41,403 nucleotides of DNA, taken from a virus. Taxonomy: Duplodnaviria > Caudoviricetes. The position numbers and the translations under genes were made by a program. Location: the IMG/VR virus record IMGVR_UViG_3300012808_000018, positions 1-41,403 of that record; one strand, given 5' to 3'. Below, one piece after another: positions 13,208-38,453 of the stretch (the stretch's first letter is position 1; every line of letters starts with the position of its first letter). Under the pieces are notes generated by a model. It was not told where the DNA came from. It worked only from the letters and a program-made list of their open reading frames with translations, and did not search any database.

Positions 13208-13855
13208 ATGGACACTGAAAATATTAAACCCTTAAATGCCGAGCAAAAGAAACTATTGACCGATAAAATCAATGGATTCGGGTTTATACTGACCGAAGCG
13301 ATGCGACATGTGAATGTATGCTTATACATGAATCATTGGGCGAATTATCCGGAGCTCACGGAGGATGAGCTTCATATGATATATTTTTCACATTACAAAC
13401 TTGCAGTTATTGATGCAGCTAAATTGATAAGTTTTAAAAGGACTGATAGTATTGAAAAGCCAAGAGGGAAAAGCGACAACGACATTCATGCAATCTATAG
13501 TATATTTCATGCGGTGGATAACCTCAAGTCGGCTAACAAATCCTCTTATTTAATGAACGAGATGACCGAGCTAAAGAAAGAACTGAGCAACTGGGACGAA
13601 TTCTCGGAAGATGTTCTTAAATTAAGGAATGAATGGTTTGCTCACTTCGGAAAAGAGAGCAGAAGGGAGAAAACCGAATTTATAAGGGCAGACTACCTTA
13701 ATAACTATCTAGTTTTGCTTAACGAATTTATTAAGTTGCTTAATGCGGAATTTTCACTGGGATTTTCAGAATTAATGGATGAAGATCACGAATTTTTCGT
13801 TAGAATTTACAGAAAGGTCTTTGGACCGACAGACAACTTTCCATTTGGAAATTAA
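13208..13855 (+). CDS. HEPN-motif protein (AbiU2-like), moron / putative abortive-infection RNase
   Basis: 215 aa all-helical protein with RNEWFAH motif (nt 13625-13645); opposite strand to the late module; visibly AT-richer than its flanks. Confidence 0.65.
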   Translation: MDTENIKPLNAEQKKLLTDKINGFGFILTEAMRHVNVCLYMNHWANYPELTEDELHMIYFSHYKLAVIDAAKLISFKRTDSIEKPRGKSDNDIHAIYSIFHAVDNLKSANKSSYLMNEMTELKKELSNWDEFSEDVLKLRNEWFAHFGKESRREKTEFIRADYLNNYLVLLNEFIKLLNAEFSLGFSELMDEDHEFFVRIYRKVFGPTDNFPFGN

Positions 13856-16458: not shown

Positions 16459-17496
16459 TTACATTGAAAAGATTTTACGTTCGCTGTTTGTGATCCTAAA
16501 GTTCATTGGGCTATCTTCCGGTTCGATCTCGCCGAACTCATCCGGATTTGCCTCGAGGTAGTTGCGCGCCTGTTCCAGGAACTCGTTTCCGTCCTTGGTC
16601 AATTGCTCGATCATCAGGTTTCTGTCGTCTGATCCCGGCACCCGCTTGCGCGAGTCCTTTAGGGTTTCGTAGTAGGTGTACAGATTGGCCTGCACGCCGA
16701 TATCGGACACGTCTATCAGCTTATCGACAATACCCTTGGCCACCGTTAAAAGCACGATGCCCGGTATCAGAAAATTGTCGATCAAGATCTTTTCCCTGTC
16801 GGAATAGTCCGCTTTTCCTTTCAGCCTAGAGAATATAGCAGGACTGATCAGGCGCTGCACCTCGAACTGCTCTATACGGTACATGATGTAACGGAGCGTA
16901 ACGAAAGTCATGTATGGATTGGTAAGATAGTACGACTGGCTGAACCGATCGGCCGATTTCACGAAGTACCGTTCCTGCTCCAGATAGTATTCCGACTGCT
17001 TCCAGTTCTCGAACAGGTCGATATTTGCGCTCAGGTACTCGAGCAGACTATCCATTGCCGCAAAACCATCACGCGCAACCTGGTATTTAAGATCATCGAT
17101 CTGCCACTGGAAGGCTGTTTTTTGGTTTTCGTTGGTCGATATACGCATGCCGTTATCACCGATCTGCATCTGCAACTGTCCCATACCGTTCATAAAGGCA
17201 ATATTTGCAACTGCATCCTGGATAAAAAGCAGCGGCTCATGATAGCGTTCGGGCGCGAGCGTGTACTGCGCGCCATCCGCGATAATTGTCGCCTTTTCCT
17301 CATCACTCAAAGTCTCCAGTGTGGCCAGCGCGTCGCGGTAGGCATCCGCTAGCTCCCGGAATAGCGCAGGCCCTAATGCGCGGACAAGATATTTTCTTTC
17401 TGCGCGGCGGATGTGTGATTTTATCCGCGTTATGGTAAACGAAGCGTTCGAGGTGAGGTAATTTTGCACCTCCTTGATATCGGAAAAGAAATTCAT
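16459..17496 (-). CDS. Putative head-tail adaptor (DUF6712-like)
   Basis: 345 aa directly after portal; two internally similar halves (AERKYLVRALGPALFREL / IEQFEVQRLISPAIFSRL). Confidence 0.55.
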   Translation of the reverse strand: MNFFSDIKEVQNYLTSNASFTITRIKSHIRRAERKYLVRALGPALFRELADAYRDALATLETLSDEEKATIIADGAQYTLAPERYHEPLLFIQDAVANIAFMNGMGQLQMQIGDNGMRISTNENQKTAFQWQIDDLKYQVARDGFAAMDSLLEYLSANIDLFENWKQSEYYLEQERYFVKSADRFSQSYYLTNPYMTFVTLRYIMYRIEQFEVQRLISPAIFSRLKGKADYSDREKILIDNFLIPGIVLLTVAKGIVDKLIDVSDIGVQANLYTYYETLKDSRKRVPGSDDRNLMIEQLTKDGNEFLEQARNYLEANPDEFGEIEPEDSPMNFRITNSERKIFSM

Positions 17497-18884
17497 CAGC
17501 TTACAATTTTGGTACCGCGTCCAGTATCGGTAGTAGTTAACACTTTGTCCAATGTGATCAGCTTCATATCTGGATTCCAGCCGTTGTATTCGCGCACGAA
17601 GTCGAAGATATGGTACAGTATAGCTCTGTCCGCGCTATTGATCGCATTCATTACAAGCCAAGATTCCCGGATATTGGAGCCGCCATTGTTTGCGCCTCCA
17701 GTGTAGGATCCGCCCGGCATGCCTACGCCGAAAACGGCAGGATTGACAAGCATCGAGAAAAGAATTTCCGCATTGGCAGCGGCTCCATCTGGGAGGTATG
17801 CGTCAGACTTAAGTTTATCGTCGATAGGCTCGATAATGATATGGCCAGACTCTTTCCCGTTACTACGATCGGTCTCAAAAAACGAAACGAAGGTCCTCAT
17901 TGCGTTATCTGTCCCCGTGAGGTATTTGTCCATCTCGTCAAGCTGTTTGTTTACTTCCACTGTCCGAGCTTCGACAGACATACTGGCCCATTTTGGAAAC
18001 TTGTTGAGCCAGTACTGCTGGTGTATCTTGACGTGGTACTTGATGGAGCTTTGGTTTCTAAAGATCGCGCGCTTGTATTCCGGAATGGAGTTGGATATTT
18101 CCAGCCATCCGTTCTCCCGGATTGCATCCCAGGCAACACGTGGATAGTAGTCGTATTCAGCATCCGGAAAATACGTCGGGAAAATGTACCGGTGGTCACC
18201 ATCGGTATAACGTATGCGCTCTACCTCTTCGTACCAGTCTGCCGAATTGATCACCTTGGTGATTTCCTTGTCGCGTGCATCAGAAGATGGAGCAGGAAAA
18301 TTTGCCGATCGCATGATCTTATCGATCCTGCCGGTGGATTGGTCGTATGGCAAGTAACGGTACTTGCGCGCCTTATCGTGTCCGACCTTGACGACCTTGG
18401 AGCGGTCCGCGTTCATCATCAATGATGGGAACGTGATGCCTAGAAAGTTATAATCCTGAATATTTGATATCCGCCATCTGTCGATGTTCGAGCGTTTCAG
18501 AAACTCGGTGACCTCGGCGTCCTTCACAAGGGAATACTTCATTTCCTTGTTATCGTCAAGTCCTTCCTCGATTACCGGGATCAGCTGCTGTCCAAAAAGT
18601 TTGTAGTTCAACAAACGCAAAGCGGACATGGCCACGCCCGATTTGCGAACCTCCGCGAAAACTTCATCTGGAAAGCGATCTGTTCGTCCCCAGGGCACCC
18701 ATTCACGCGAACCGCTGAACTCTTTTTTGTTGGGAACTACGGAGCCGAAGTTCTCATCCTTCAACTTAGCGGCAACGGAACTGGAGGTGGTGCCGGAGGA
18801 GGTCGCAACGTATGATCCGCCCTCTCTAAATGCGTATATCGGAAAACCTTCCGAGCTATATTCTATGTGCCGGGTTCCTGTCAT
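17496..18884 (-). CDS. Phage portal protein
   Basis: 462 aa; WVPWG..D.FP, YYPRVAW and GSNIRE motifs of Bacteroidota phage portals; head-module position. Confidence 0.75.
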   Translation of the reverse strand: MTGTRHIEYSSEGFPIYAFREGGSYVATSSGTTSSSVAAKLKDENFGSVVPNKKEFSGSREWVPWGRTDRFPDEVFAEVRKSGVAMSALRLLNYKLFGQQLIPVIEEGLDDNKEMKYSLVKDAEVTEFLKRSNIDRWRISNIQDYNFLGITFPSLMMNADRSKVVKVGHDKARKYRYLPYDQSTGRIDKIMRSANFPAPSSDARDKEITKVINSADWYEEVERIRYTDGDHRYIFPTYFPDAEYDYYPRVAWDAIRENGWLEISNSIPEYKRAIFRNQSSIKYHVKIHQQYWLNKFPKWASMSVEARTVEVNKQLDEMDKYLTGTDNAMRTFVSFFETDRSNGKESGHIIIEPIDDKLKSDAYLPDGAAANAEILFSMLVNPAVFGVGMPGGSYTGGANNGGSNIRESWLVMNAINSADRAILYHIFDFVREYNGWNPDMKLITLDKVLTTTDTGRGTKIVS

Positions 18885-19156
18885 TTTACTACACGTTTGC
18901 CGTTAAACTCAAAAATCAATTGGATGTGGATTGCAGACTTAATTCCCGAGTCTAGATCTACCAGTCCGCGCATTTCGTTATCGCGCACTGAATATGGCAG
19001 GCCCTGAATCTGTCCCTTTTCGATGGTACGCCATTGTCCTCCCTTTCTCCGAGTGCGATCACACGTGAGATAGGTCATGGAAAAATGCTCTTTAGATACC
19101 TGATATCGGCATCGGTCAAGCTGCTTTAAGACTTCGGAAAGAGGTATCGTTTGCAT
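18881..19156 (-). CDS. Hypothetical phage protein
   Basis: 91 aa, ATGA overlap with portal, preceded by the late promoter motif. Confidence 0.75.
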   Translation of the reverse strand: MQTIPLSEVLKQLDRCRYQVSKEHFSMTYLTCDRTRRKGGQWRTIEKGQIQGLPYSVRDNEMRGLVDLDSGIKSAIHIQLIFEFNGKRVVK

Positions 19157-19160
19157 ACTT

Positions 19161-19196
19161 CAAAAATCACTCATTGAAGGCCTTTGCGAAACGACA
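19161..19196 (-). promoter_or_regulatory. Putative late promoter (TGTCGTTT-N20-GATTTTTG), 4 nt before ATG
   Basis: Copy of the six-fold repeated motif. Confidence 0.72.
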
Positions 19197-19405
19197 CAAA
19201 GAGCGGATACTTATATATCAACCTGTTACGTTAAAATTTTCAAAAATTGGACTTTTTTTGTGCGCAAAAGACTAAAAACCAAGAACATGAAGGTTTCAAA
19301 AGTTTCAAAAAGGATGCAAAGTGTCTTTCAGCACCCCGCCGTGCCCTGTCAAAAAACGGCATTTTCCGTTTTTTTTGCCCTCGGAATATGATTCGGTACC
19401 CTCGA

Positions 19406-19432
19406 TCGAGGCCCCCTTGAAAGGGGCCTCGA
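19406..19432. repeat. Perfect 10-bp inverted repeat (tcgaggcccc/ggggcctcga)
   Basis: Seen directly; lies just downstream of the TS-like gene in a ~250-bp non-coding gap. Confidence 0.7.
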
Positions 19433-19452
19433 GGTCGGTCCAATTTTTTTTT

Positions 19453-20091
19453 TTAGACGTTGAGGGCGAACCTTACCTGCCTGTCTCCCCCGATCAACTG
19501 CCGGGTTCCTTCCATGTTGTTGCTATAGATGTGCACATTCCCCAGGAACATCGTGATCTCCTTCAATGGCAGATCGATCTTGCGCGAGATCAGGTACAAG
19601 TGATAGATATCTGCAGGCAGACCGAGGTTGGCATCCGAGCTGCGCTGGTATGCCGATAGGATCAACTTGCCGTTTTCGATCTGGAACTGGATGAGCGACA
19701 GGCACGGGCTCTGGTTGCTCTCGGCTCCGGTCGCGCCAAGGAACAGCACATAGTTCTTGCTCGCCCTCTTCTCCCGGTTGATCTGTTTAATTAAGTCCGG
19801 TAGCTTCTCGAAGTAGGTGGGATAGGAGTTGATAAGGATCGGACCGCAGTAGTCCCACCACGTTACGCCGATCTCACGGTACCGCTCGGTAAGCCGTTCG
19901 CCCTTCTCGAAGAGCTCCAGCTCGCCGGACAGTTTACGCCTGGCGATCTGGTGGCCTTCAAAGATGTCCAGCAGATCTGCCGGCTTGAGCGAAAGCTTTT
20001 GGTTATGGAGATAGGTGATATCGCCCTTGTTGTTGCGTTGGCTCTTTCCCTTGTTCAGGATCTTCTCTAGCATTAGATGGTACTTGTTCAT
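19453..20091 (-). CDS. Truncated thymidylate synthase-family protein (probably cytosine-specific)
   Basis: GELELF (E58), VTWWD, SPC (catalytic Cys), YQRSSD, LGLPAD (Asp at the Asn177 position), GNVHIY; only 212 aa. Confidence 0.88.
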   Translation of the reverse strand: MNKYHLMLEKILNKGKSQRNNKGDITYLHNQKLSLKPADLLDIFEGHQIARRKLSGELELFEKGERLTERYREIGVTWWDYCGPILINSYPTYFEKLPDLIKQINREKRASKNYVLFLGATGAESNQSPCLSLIQFQIENGKLILSAYQRSSDANLGLPADIYHLYLISRKIDLPLKEITMFLGNVHIYSNNMEGTRQLIGGDRQVRFALNV

Positions 20092-20100
20092 TGTCCTAAG

Positions 20101-20931
20101 CTATTTGACGATCATGATATCGGTGTACTTAGCTGCAGGGTTCGGCTGGGCAACGTGGGAGTACACCACAGAATGGCTGAAGGGATTCGCCCCGGGAACC
20201 TTACGTTCCATCCACTCACACAGCTCGATGATCTGCGACTTGTTCGATGTGAAGTAATAGTAGTGTGGCACCTGCAGAACCTCCAACACATCAAGATAGT
20301 CTCCCAGCTTCCAATACGAAGATTTGTAGGGTACAACATCAGTTGACAGGTATGGTGGATCGACAAGGAACACAACGTTTGGTCTGTTCCTGTAGAGCGC
20401 GAAAAGTTCCTTGTAATCCATGCGGACACGTTCCACGCCATGTAGATAACCATCGGCATTGTACGCGGAACCCCGCACTACGTTATAAAACGTTTGGCGG
20501 CCAAGCGTATCCAGATCATGCACATAGTTCATAGCAAAGAGCAGGTTGCTTGATATGGTGATATAGTCAACATATCCTGTGGCGATCTCTTCGTGCCTGA
20601 TCCTGTCCAGTATTGGCCGGCGTCTGTCCTTGGGAATAGCCTTGTCCCTCGGAAGATCGGCAACAAGTTCCCTTAGATCGGCTACTAAGCGGTTGGTTGC
20701 GTCGATGCGCTGCAGTCGTTGGTAAAAGTTATCGTAGTCGTTGTAGACTACCTTTGCATCCGGGTAATGCTTTTTTACCGTGTTGGCAAGCAGACCACTG
20801 CCGCCAAAAAGGTCGACATAAGTGGCCGTAGGCGAATTAGTTGCCAAAATCTCCGTGAATTTTTTCAGGAATCTTCTTTTCTGTCCCATGAACGGCAAGG
20901 GTGCCGAGGTGTGAATTTTACTTGTTTTCAT
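20101..20931 (-). CDS. DNA amino-methyltransferase (Dam/D12-like, alpha class)
   Basis: PLPFMGQK (motif X), YVDLFGGSG (motif I), VYND, FLVDPPY (motif IV). Confidence 0.88.
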   Translation of the reverse strand: MKTSKIHTSAPLPFMGQKRRFLKKFTEILATNSPTATYVDLFGGSGLLANTVKKHYPDAKVVYNDYDNFYQRLQRIDATNRLVADLRELVADLPRDKAIPKDRRRPILDRIRHEEIATGYVDYITISSNLLFAMNYVHDLDTLGRQTFYNVVRGSAYNADGYLHGVERVRMDYKELFALYRNRPNVVFLVDPPYLSTDVVPYKSSYWKLGDYLDVLEVLQVPHYYYFTSNKSQIIELCEWMERKVPGANPFSHSVVYSHVAQPNPAAKYTDIMIVK

Positions 20932-20942
20932 TTTATATTTAT

Positions 20943-21074
20943 TAAATTTGCGTTCTCACAAACAAAAATTACTGCAGACTATTGTACATCATGCAAGGTT
21001 ATCCCCGGCCGTGAATGTGTATACGTTTGCAGTTTTTGTTTGTGAGAATTACGAAAGCAAGCCGGGGACTTTTT
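20943..21074. promoter_or_regulatory. Structured intergenic element with interleaved inverted repeats and a + strand TAAATTTG -7 box; candidate regulatory RNA
   Basis: 20953-20968 is the perfect reverse complement of 21033-21048; tccccggc 21002-21009 pairs with gccgggga 21061-21068. Confidence 0.6.
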
Positions 21075-21081
21075 ACCCCGA

Positions 21082-22590
21082 TCACATAGCCCTAGCAGGC
21101 ATCCATAATCCAGCGGACGATTCCAGTCTAGCAGAATACTTAAAATATCCTATCATATCCATTGCGTCCCCCTGGTGCGTTGTATAACGCTGATCAACGC
21201 TCTGTTTACGTTCATCCGTCTTGATCTTTTCAGGGCCATAGGTTCCTTCCTTTGCCGCCGAGTTATTGATCGAATGTATAAGGTACTTGCACTTGGTCCG
21301 GTTCCAGGAAAAGATCGGCAGTGCCGGATGGTCATTACGCATGGCAATAGACCAGAACTTGTATTTATCGTGGTGCTCCGGAGCCGCGCCATAGTACTGA
21401 CGTTCCACATCCCAGCCGTTCTTTTCCAGCGTTTGGATCACGATATCGGCATAGGTAAGCGGTGAACGTGCATCTTTACCCATTGCCGTCTGATCATACC
21501 AGTACACAACCCTGCGAAGGCGATGGAAACGATAATAGTCGCACCAGCGCTGCACAAGCACCTCGATCATCTCTCCATCGTTGACAGGCGTAATGGATGA
21601 CAGGAACCGGAACTCGTTCAGAAAATTTTCCTGCCCCGTAACCACACAGCAGAACTTGCCATAATCCAGGGCAATATCCAGTTCCGTCTCCAGCAGCACA
21701 TCGTTCACCTCGCGGCAGTCCAGATCATCAAAGCTGCTCTTGTCGTAGCCCTCTGCATTTTCGATCAGTCCGCGCAGATAATCGTTATTGAAATCGTCGT
21801 AGGTATGGCGCTTTTCGTTAAACAGCGGATAGAAACCGCCCCCAACCGCGCGCGGACGTATGTTGCCAATTTCGATATCATACTCGTACTTGGTCATGAT
21901 CCTGCGCTGCTCGGTGAACCAATCTGCAGGCAGATTATCCGAATTAACACTTGACGGTGCGCGCACATATAGGATCTTGTCCGGAGTCGCCTGCGCTGCC
22001 GTCTCATAGGTATAGATGAATTTTCCCTCCTGCGTCCGGGGAATGGATGATGCGTATACCTGGGAAAGCCATTTGGGATGGTGTTCAAAGTATCGCTTAC
22101 CACCGCGTAGCGTTGCCAGTGTCTCTTTTTGGAACTTGACAGGATCGAGCTCACAGAACTCATCGGCAAGCCCGGTGCACGTGTTAAGTCCGCGAGAGCT
22201 GACATCCTGTGAAAGCAGGAGCCATACCGCCCCGGTATACCAAGAAATTGCCTTGCCGTAATCCTGTGGCGGCTCGTAAGGTTCTCTCCAATTTCTCCAG
22301 GTCGGTTTCTTACATACGGTAAAATGCACCTCCGGAATGTAGCCCAGGGATTTGAGTGAGGAAATCGTGGACGGCAGCGTTCTGGTGAGCGCCTGCTGAT
22401 AGGTTCTGGCCTGCATGAAGTTGGTACTGCGCGGCAGCTCGTGCGCGATATCCTCCATCTTGTCGGCAAGTACAGTGGATTTTCCCACACCGCGAGCGCC
22501 CTCGATGACGACGGTGCGCTGCGGGGCATTGCGGACAACGATCTGCATCGCATTACGGACAAGTTCAAGCTTAGGTCTATTCCCCGCCAT
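21082..22590 (-). CDS. terL: Terminase large subunit
   Basis: Walker A EGARGVGKS, Walker B GLADEF, RNase H-like IALDYG and HQGDAMD. Confidence 0.9.
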   Translation of the reverse strand: MAGNRPKLELVRNAMQIVVRNAPQRTVVIEGARGVGKSTVLADKMEDIAHELPRSTNFMQARTYQQALTRTLPSTISSLKSLGYIPEVHFTVCKKPTWRNWREPYEPPQDYGKAISWYTGAVWLLLSQDVSSRGLNTCTGLADEFCELDPVKFQKETLATLRGGKRYFEHHPKWLSQVYASSIPRTQEGKFIYTYETAAQATPDKILYVRAPSSVNSDNLPADWFTEQRRIMTKYEYDIEIGNIRPRAVGGGFYPLFNEKRHTYDDFNNDYLRGLIENAEGYDKSSFDDLDCREVNDVLLETELDIALDYGKFCCVVTGQENFLNEFRFLSSITPVNDGEMIEVLVQRWCDYYRFHRLRRVVYWYDQTAMGKDARSPLTYADIVIQTLEKNGWDVERQYYGAAPEHHDKYKFWSIAMRNDHPALPIFSWNRTKCKYLIHSINNSAAKEGTYGPEKIKTDERKQSVDQRYTTHQGDAMDMIGYFKYSARLESSAGLWMPARAM

Positions 22591-31623: not shown

Positions 31624-31959
31624 TTAGCTTTTGATGGCTTTTTCTTCGCTCCTGATAGTCGTTTTTAAATTTATCACCTGCGAAAAGCGTTGCTTAAGGT
31701 GTTTTGGCAACTCGTTGACTTTACCCTGCCAAACGAAAACTGCATGAAATTTCTTTTTCTCAGCCAAAGCAACGCGCAAGGCCAAGGCCTCCACGGATGG
31801 TATTTCATCAAATAGGACAGCCCCAGATGGCCATGTTTTTAAATCAGGAGGGGAACAGTGGCCAAGGTTTATCGTAAATGGTACATTCATTCGTTTTAAG
31901 AGCTCTCTTGCTTTAGTGGTTTTACCCGAACCTGCCGGTCCTGTAATTAGTATTTTCAT
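31624..31959 (-). CDS. Small P-loop NTPase
   Basis: Walker A GPAGSGKT, Walker B-like VLFDE; 111 aa. Confidence 0.75.
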   Translation of the reverse strand: MKILITGPAGSGKTTKARELLKRMNVPFTINLGHCSPPDLKTWPSGAVLFDEIPSVEALALRVALAEKKKFHAVFVWQGKVNELPKHLKQRFSQVINLKTTIRSEEKAIKS

Positions 31960-37923: not shown

Positions 37924-38268
37924 TTATGCTGATTGCTCCTGTTGCTGATCAATACTGTTCTCAAAAAGTTTGAGCGTAGGATGCACGGTAATTCCCAGTT
38001 CCTTTGCGAGTCGTGCCTCGATCCACGCACCCTTAGATTTTTGCCAACCCGGTAGCAGTATCAGGTCGGTACATTCCATCAGTTTTACGATGCACCGGCG
38101 CATGTAGATTTCCCAGTCGGATCCTTCCGGAATGTCGGAACAGAACTCGTGCGGATTTCGTACAAAAAGTCCCTTGGCCTTGAGCTCTGCGCACACGACT
38201 TTAAAGGATTCGCGATTACCATCCGGATGGCCTGTTATGGGTCCGGAAATATAGATTACCCTGTTCAT
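37924..38268 (-). CDS. DUF4406-family (nucleoside 2-deoxyribosyltransferase-like fold) protein
   Basis: IYISGPITG, WEIYMRRCI..L.ECT..ILLPGWQKSKGAWIE; start MNRVIY. Confidence 0.85.
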   Translation of the reverse strand: MNRVIYISGPITGHPDGNRESFKVVCAELKAKGLFVRNPHEFCSDIPEGSDWEIYMRRCIVKLMECTDLILLPGWQKSKGAWIEARLAKELGITVHPTLKLFENSIDQQQEQSA

Positions 38269-38453
38269 TGCTCCAGCTTTTTTAGTTCCCTTGATGCAAA
38301 TACGACGGGAACAGTGTTTCCACATTCATCGCAGTTACTAAGCTCCATGGAAACACCGCCGTTTTCCTTTTCAGTGATCTTCATTTTATGGATTCCCGTA
38401 GCGCAACTTTTGCAATGGTAGACTATGATCCTTGGCTTTTTTACCTTACTCAT
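38265..38453 (-). CDS. Small Zn-ribbon protein
   Basis: CKSC...CDECG. Confidence 0.6.
   Translation of the reverse strand: MSKVKKPRIIVYHCKSCATGIHKMKITEKENGGVSMELSNCDECGNTVPVVFASRELKKLEQ

Follow-up and report, generated by a model that had tools for sequence, protein, structure and literature searches.

The enzyme classes discussed here, and the mom slot itself, are already known. In Mu-like prophages mom can be replaced by the genes of Hia5, Hin1523 or Nme1821, each of which alone gives broad m6A in vitro, and nothing but m6A (PMC3299994). For cytosine, the substitution N177D makes ThyA act on dCMP, and cytosine-modified phage contigs are best told from unmodified ones by positions 177 and 147 (PMC8670742). 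The dCMP hydroxymethylase of T4, gp42, works without the ThyA tail, its hydroxymethylation is abolished by D145N, and the mark of hydroxymethylases is an Asp or Glu three residues before the catalytic Cys, together with Ser-x-Tyr (PMC6400193). The mark of the 5-hydroxy-dCMP synthases is D169N; in the same work, thymidylate synthase (TS) homologues by themselves left only traces of modified C in the DNA of E. coli, and clear incorporation needed the phage kinase (PMC13326640). The DNA of phage Xp12 is described as 100% 5mC (PMC7653180). Two things appear to be undescribed: a cytosine-type TS homologue that occupies a mom slot without a kinase, and a single RNA switch shared by six or seven families of modifiers. 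A literature search (subscription journals, bioRxiv supplements and large RNA-motif supplements lay outside its scope) returned no paper on the specificity or the leader of this TS family, no modified base measured for any of its members and no test of its role on cytosine.

The window, by which we mean the whole stretch of DNA analysed, is the record of one virus of 41,403 bases, and its 51 proteins were scanned with Pfam. It encodes an integrase, a tape measure, a lysozyme, a terminase, a head protease and a primase (family matches); judged by its sequence, the source is a temperate phage of Bacteroidota, and the close relatives of its methylase come from Sphingobacterium. An earlier note, made from the letters alone, had described an intact DPPY methyltransferase gene and, 9 nt downstream, a 212-aa TS-fold gene, both between terL and the portal in a late operon of the packaging module. 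The two reading frames, both on the minus strand, were confirmed (Table 1) and both lie downstream of terL, whereas the name of the portal rests on position; the presumed gene (17496-18884) has no Pfam, PHROG or NCBIfam match. Between terL and the methylase gene lie a terminator-like hairpin and a folded leader, so that plain co-transcription with terL cannot be assumed. The placement in the packaging module is not conserved either, as in most relatives the genes are found where the tail module or the prophage ends.

Table 1. Features of the modification locus in the window
Feature	Position	Strand	Remarks
TS homologue gene	19453..20091	-	212 aa; Pfam Thymidylat_synt, E 1.6e-17
Methylase gene	20101..20931	-	276 aa; FGGSG and DPPY; Pfam D12, E 1.6e-6
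Terminase large subunit (terL)	21082..22590	-	phrog_2, E 2.2e-11; upstream of methylase
Non-coding block after TS stop	19321..19394	-	directly after methylase stop in sister phage L164 (by eye)
Long leader hairpin	20953..21048	-	folding z of the region -6.45; sole window match of model R2
Small upstream hairpin	21061..21081	-	right after terL stop
TAnnTTTG motif	20943..20950	+	sequence; antisense through leader

No dNMP kinase, dCTPase or DNA polymerase had been recognised in the window, and the Pfam scan of the 51 proteins agrees (unrecognisable forms aside); none is found among the 48 annotated features of hankyphage (Bacteroides phage p00 / jmh43_hp) either. Two candidates were examined and rejected. 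A 111-aa P-loop protein (31624-31959, minus strand) with Walker A and B motifs, AAA-like by eye, has AAA and Cytidylate_kin as its best Pfam matches, the score being too weak (E 0.049) to call it a cytidylate kinase. The open reading frame 37924-38325 is MazG-like by PHROG match but DUF4406 by Pfam, and was not retained as a dCTPase. Elsewhere in the window, a 215-aa gene of low G+C content (13208-13855, plus strand) lies on the strand opposite to the structural region around it; its HEPN_AbiU2 match is weak (E 0.0046) and PADLOC gives none, and it may be a defence moron. The non-coding block that follows the TS stop would mark the TS gene as a unit gained or lost. This block also stands just upstream of a 91-aa gene and the presumed portal, and could be a packaging or regulatory site. 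An inverted repeat of 13 bp lies at 19406-19432, 3' of the TS stop.

The methylase has the Dam fold (model pLDDT 86; Foldseek matches to Dam and DpnM, E 1e-7 to 2e-4), with FGGSG and the DPPY at residues 191-194; a sequence search of the PDB gave no significant match. It is 38% identical over 275 residues (E 1e-55) to gp53 of SuMu, a Mu-like phage; the gp53 gene lies behind Com at the phage end, and its beginning resembles the hia5 and hin1523 primers. It thus combines motif I and DPPY, the Dam fold and full-length homology to a Com-linked methylase, here a stand-in for Hia5, and is predicted to be a broad-specificity m6A writer of the Hia5/Hin1523 type.

The model of the TS homologue (pLDDT 81) matches ThyA, T4 gp42, MilA and dCMP monooxygenase, the best matches (Z 14.6-17.3, rmsd 2.6-3.4 over 195-202 residues, the top five being tied) all being nucleotide-level enzymes; MilA, a CMP hydroxymethylase, is among the tied ones (Z 16.1). 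There is no extra DNA-binding domain in the 212-aa model. PADLOC gave no match, ESM Atlas matched only the protein's own Pfam family, and the equivalog cut-offs of NCBIfam were missed (TIGR03284, 50 bits vs 108; NF002497, 53 vs 327). We aligned the protein with E. coli ThyA, T4 gp42 and the Xp12 TS homologue and counted residues over 247 distinct close relatives. The catalytic machinery described in the earlier note (E57, C130, YQRSxD, H187/Y189) and the Asp opposite N177 of E. coli ThyA (D161) were confirmed, on a TS fold with both the catalytic Cys and Glu. The family is uniform at these sites, with C130, E57, R150, D153, D161, H187, Y189 and L131, which replaces H147, present in 247/247 relatives and S151 in 246/247.

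The loss of the phosphate pocket appears to have been overstated. The ThyA ligands R166, S167, H207 and Y209 are kept in the family (R150, S151, H187, Y189). At the position of R21 in the DRTG loop, here NNKG, the window protein indeed has Asn, but the family has Lys or Arg in 240/247 (222 Lys and 18 Arg, with 6 Asn and 1 Met), at a position where the register varies, HMMER setting R19 against R21 and MAFFT differing; the adjoining K22 is present in 247/247, and T4 gp42 too carries a Lys in this loop. Where ThyA reads SRR and this protein SKN, R127 is lost (Asn in 247/247), but R126 is Lys (K112, 247/247), so that a basic residue is retained. R127 is dispensable in L. casei TS. At the level of the family, R127 would be the only phosphate ligand lost and the others are mostly kept or conservatively changed, as far as an alignment, as opposed to a ligand model, can tell. 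The C-terminal region reported as missing is shortened by internal loss, but still ends in a conserved F-x-L-N (F208 in 245, L210 in 246 and N211 in 247 of the 247). Other positions set the family apart: Gln at L143 (Q127, 247/247), changed folate-site residues (W83 to C82, F176 to A160 and K48 to H47, by ungapped counting), and WWDYCG and ESNQ loops that are invariant and family-specific. The median pI is 8.9, vs 5.6-6.4 for ThyA, gp42 and Xp12, and full-length relatives with SRR are also basic (P0432, 8.8; P0449, 9.3). A profile search for distant relatives gave 2027 matches at E<=0.001, and 17 of them form a series that begins with full-length Asp177 enzymes carrying DRTG and SRR, passes through SRN and ends in the short NKKG/SKN form.

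The invariance of D161 and of L131, with the loss of His147 that the latter entails, argues for the cytosine-type modification that had been proposed. Because Lys or Arg stands at position 21 in nearly all relatives, Lys stands at 126, and R166, S167, H207 and Y209 are kept, the mononucleotide dCMP would be a more likely substrate than DNA. As the equivalent of D169 (D153) is kept in all the relatives and D169N is absent, the enzyme is probably not a 5-hydroxy-dCMP synthase of that type. It has N88-S89-Y90 where the hydroxymethylase has S-x-Y (by eye). The Asp177-type TS gene of Xp12, which we infer to be the dCMP methylase of that phage, has Asn three residues before the catalytic Cys. Since D169 is kept, Gln and not Asp or Glu stands at L143, and Xp12 has Asn there, 5-methyl-dCMP would be the favoured product; we place about two thirds of our confidence in methyl and one third in hydroxymethyl or another group.

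We then asked how often the two genes go together, taking the best 80 of 349 TS loci from genomes and the best 80 of 514 from viruses, a redundant and non-random sample. The methylase is adjacent (within 600 nt) in 122/160, upstream of the TS in 45 and downstream in 77, so that co-occurrence is frequent but not obligate. Among the 38 other loci, 24 have both flanks of at least 1.5 kb and are solo TS; beside the TS, three of the 38 have another D12 methylase and one has a methylase of the N6/N4 type. Three different methylase families pair with the TS. Conversely, the TS is found in 27 of the best 80 methylase loci, and the 53 without it comprise 24 with both flanks of at least 1 kb and 29 with a short flank. 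The two closest sister phages keep terL, the methylase and the downstream genes, without the TS. No such methylase was found anywhere in 10/10 solo-TS viral records (completeness 36-100% where given, at least 90% for two) or in 3/4 solo-TS genomes, the fourth having one 2.4 Mb away (the positive control was found). In a tree of 114 distinct TS sequences, 34 are solo and the solo status changes 16 times, vs a mean of 29 after shuffling; a single conservative I/V column separates solo from paired sequences. The identities of TS and methylase are correlated (Spearman 0.75, 113 distinct pairs), which shared ancestry predicts as well.

Fusions of the two genes were also considered. A search for longer proteins gave 16 matches, of which the 11 examined are TS-methylase joints cut short or chimeras with unrelated proteins; every fusion among these is cut short where the two proteins meet and has the look of a deletion or an assembly chimera, and a Rosetta-stone reading was rejected. 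One group (P0303-P0309, one of them named Bacteroides caccae) is a 403-aa fusion, present in several records, in which a deletion removes the TS tail and the SAM-binding motif of the methylase. P0001 is an internal duplication.

Upstream of the methylase gene stands a long leader hairpin that ends 21 nt before its ATG, with a perfect outer stem of 16 bp and an inner stem of one purine-rich and one pyrimidine-rich strand with G-U pairs. A reading of the 16-bp inverted repeat as an invertible promoter was rejected, the stems extending with bulges and G-U pairs and the sequence varying between loci. The small hairpin just upstream has a 3' arm that is exactly complementary to the purine-rich strand inside the long hairpin (21003-21009), and because of this complementarity two mutually exclusive folds, i.e. 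a switch by alternative pairing, are predicted. In 65 leaders chosen by flanking motif and folding energy (z -5.7 to -16.7; median identity of the middle arm 41%), the upstream arm is exactly complementary over at least 7 nt to the inner purine-rich strand in 36, vs a mean of 10.5 and a maximum of 18 with partners swapped and 0.2 after shuffling; the sense strand is the more stable in 45/65. In a hand-set structure of 15 pairs, 86% of the cells pair and 12 pairs show two-sided changes, all slid controls being lower, though related sequences may inflate the figure.

For the search of further loci we used model R2, restricted to the hand-set outer and inner stems (the middle stem did not align, and R1, an RNAalifold consensus of 7 pairs, was set aside). 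A sense-strand match at E<0.05, once each, was found in 76/80 and 79/80 TS loci of the two sets (155/160, with 30 in training; hand count) and, among the best 80 loci of the methylase, in 73 (with 34 in training and one match lying downstream; hand count). The matches immediately precede whichever gene opens the unit, be it the methylase, the TS or a Mor-like gene, and about 225 related loci carry the conserved folded leader. The hankyphage leader, outside the training set, matches with E 4e-7, and the SuMu, T4, thyA and Xp12 stretches have no match. Rfam gave 0 matches at E<=5 in window positions 18500-21500 and 0 at gathering score in 14 leader-bearing loci; a 'D12-methyl' RNA motif found no support in the Rfam search or the main text of the literature. 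A TAnnTTTG sequence, which we take to be the Bacteroidota -7 promoter consensus, follows the hairpin in 53/59 methylase and 26/31 TS leaders with a long inverted repeat, and is a putative antisense promoter motif reading through the leader; the control for inverted repeats is high (45/150), probably including Mor-like genes behind the same leader, and the weight is carried by R2 and by the pattern scan described below. The Mor-like gene (80 aa, helix-turn-helix) is the first behind the leader in gut Bacteroidales phages, in 91/160 of the best TS loci (e.g., L162:40709-40951), and is absent from the window. At L212:5824-7995 an insertion of about 2 kb separates it from the methylase-TS pair, with the leader still upstream. 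A reverse transcriptase of a diversity-generating retroelement (family F3) lies near the slot in 62/160 of the best TS loci, as in hankyphage.

Viral contigs were further scanned with a DNA pattern of the leader. The matches listed, biased to one variant, comprise 100 stretches, 94 of them distinct, with 56 complete leaders (38 partial ones were set aside). Among the 56 listed, the leader is followed first by this TS in 16 (14 by HMM, 2 by eye), this methylase in 14, another D12 methylase in 3, Mom in 4, a ParB-N6/N4 methylase in 7 (5 by Pfam), a C5 cytosine methylase in 2 (L328, L333) and a small ORF followed by an ATPase-GNAT in 9 (1 by Pfam, 8 by eye), 1 being unassigned. The last combination, an ORF of about 50 aa and an ABC-type ATPase-GNAT fusion (L292:2-1168, minus strand; L267, L284, L293, L297, L301, L321 and L350), presumably is Mom-like, and the fusion is a candidate DNA acyltransferase. 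Because the same leader precedes Mom, C5, N6/N4 and Dam-type genes, we regard the TS as an exchangeable occupant of a slot for DNA modification, in which all the other identified occupants act on DNA and not on the nucleotide pool. The analogy with Mu mom drawn in the earlier note gains from this, since the same leader precedes true Mom genes, and hankyphage carries the pair at its right end, the mom end. Broken copies also occur behind an intact leader (a short-framed TS in L274, a frameshifted methylase in L330).

With somewhat better than even confidence, we propose that the locus holds two anti-restriction modifiers, each independent of the other, which share a single slot under regulation and of which the TS probably makes 5-methyl-dCMP. 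The long hairpin, the alternative pairing and the antisense promoter would keep host-toxic genes quiet in the lysogen, and induction would relieve the leader. The methylase would then write m6A broadly, while the TS, with the help of methylene-tetrahydrofolate, would turn free dCMP into a C5-modified form, most likely 5-methyl-dCMP. Host kinases, which under this model would have to accept 5-methyl-dCMP, and the host replisome would place the modified C at part of the cytosines of the phage DNA during lytic growth, with partial protection from restriction as the outcome. In hankyphage, the gene annotated ThyA and the methylase gene rise upon prophage derepression (ThyA log2 2.0/1.5/1.8/4.4 at 1/2/6/22 h); the induction of ThyA is weaker than that of the capsid genes, and the RNA-seq resolves no late class (PMC12135933).

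Against a pool enzyme speak the lack of a recognised kinase in the window, the action on DNA of all other identified genes of the slot, the Asn at R127, the changed folate site and the basic character of the family. All of these but the folate site, together with the invariant WWDYCG and ESNQ loops and the exchange of the TS with a SAM-dependent C5 methylase, would suit a folate-dependent enzyme that works by itself and acts on DNA, modifying C5 of cytosine once replication is done. We hold this to be unlikely, but not negligible, as the equivalents of H207 and Y209 are invariant, the phosphate ligands are mostly kept and the compact model has no added DNA-binding domain. In ThyA, H207 and Y209 bind the free 3'-OH of the nucleotide, and we know of no ThyA-fold enzyme that acts on a polymer. 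Slightly less likely again is the fuller claim that this family is the first of the ThyA fold to methylate cytosine in DNA through folate and not SAM, in thousands of temperate phages of Bacteroidota, the common gut hankyphage among them, gated by an undescribed RNA switch and antisense RNA as are Mom and four methylase families. One might also think of another cytosine chemistry, acting on CMP or making a modified nucleotide as a sink of the pool or a block to competing phages; the tie with MilA, the lack of a kinase and a tight regulation that fits any toxic product agree with it, but the slot is one common to DNA-protecting enzymes and the neighbourhoods show no sign of an RNA or antibiotic pathway, which makes it distinctly improbable in our eyes.

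Public records name the gene thymidylate synthase or ThyA, and one could think of a role in thymidylate supply, either from dUMP or through 5-methyl-dCMP that the host deaminates to dTMP; with the latter sink, no new kinase would be required. The earlier note had set such a role aside, and we agree that it is very improbable: Asp177 and the loss of His147 are invariant, a canonical ThyA is present in 5/5 host genomes checked, and the gene lies behind a leader of DNA modifiers, not with replication genes or dihydrofolate reductase. The same note had proposed a two-component system in which the methyltransferase would serve the TS by recognition or flipping of the base, or by providing a second methyl group. 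The adjacency in most of the best TS loci, the correlated identities and the in-frame fusions are what one would expect of it, yet we can hardly give it any weight, for solo TS are frequent and scattered over the tree, with the methylase absent from whole records, both gene orders occur, no residue set tells solo from paired enzymes, three methylase families serve as partners, most of the best methylase loci lack the TS (many with a short flank), the examined fusions look like deletions or chimeras, and Hia5, Hin1523 and Nme1821 act alone in vitro, on adenine.

The TS family comprises at least 8000 clusters at 90% identity, and the hankyphage allele alone is found on at least 1000 contigs; its members are routinely labelled thymidylate synthase and hence read as metabolic genes. 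If the enzyme makes modified cytosine, base modification at the level of the pool would extend beyond large lytic phages with kinases and polymerases of their own to small temperate phages that depend on the machinery of the host. Common gut prophages would then carry both A and C marks, which would bear on host range, on the methylomes of Bacteroidota and on phage isolation. An inducible hankyphage lysogen exists (PMC12135933). The leader may also serve as a bait for DNA-modifying enzymes, a short pattern having retrieved Mom, C5, N6/N4 and Dam-type genes.

Hankyphage is among the closest known systems. Its 'ThyA' and 'DNA methyltransferase' are 72% and 49% identical to the TS and the methylase of the window, adjacent to each other and preceded by the same leader; the main text of the hankyphage papers searched has no discussion of the TS gene. 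There the pair, with the TS first, follows a Mor-like gene and closes the right end of a Mu-like genome; the window phage, which has an integrase, carries the methylase first and then the TS, behind terL. The methylase resembles Hia5, Hin1523 and Nme1821 in its Dam fold, its length (about 280 aa) and the position of its DPPY; SuMu has Com and no match to the R2 leader, whereas the window phage has no Com gene. The TS shares with T4 gp42 (5hm-dCMP), Xp12, the 5-hydroxy-dCMP synthase of RB69/HY126 and MilA the fold, the Cys and Glu, Asp177 and a short C-terminus, but is only 13-18% identical to these enzymes and has neither the Asp/Glu145 nor the D169N mark. Unlike the known dCMP-modifying phages, the window phage and its relatives are small, temperate and devoid of a recognised kinase, dCTPase or polymerase. 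E. coli ThyA shares with the TS the fold, E58, C146, R166, S167, D169, H207 and Y209, and the TS differs from it by N177D, H147L, L143Q, R126K, R127N, W83C, F176A and a length shorter by about 50 residues. The slot as a whole compares with Mu com-mom, both having an exchangeable gene at a dedicated place under the control of a structured leader; the genes of the window are unrelated in sequence to Mom, and control here appears to be exerted by an RNA switch and an antisense promoter motif in place of Com.
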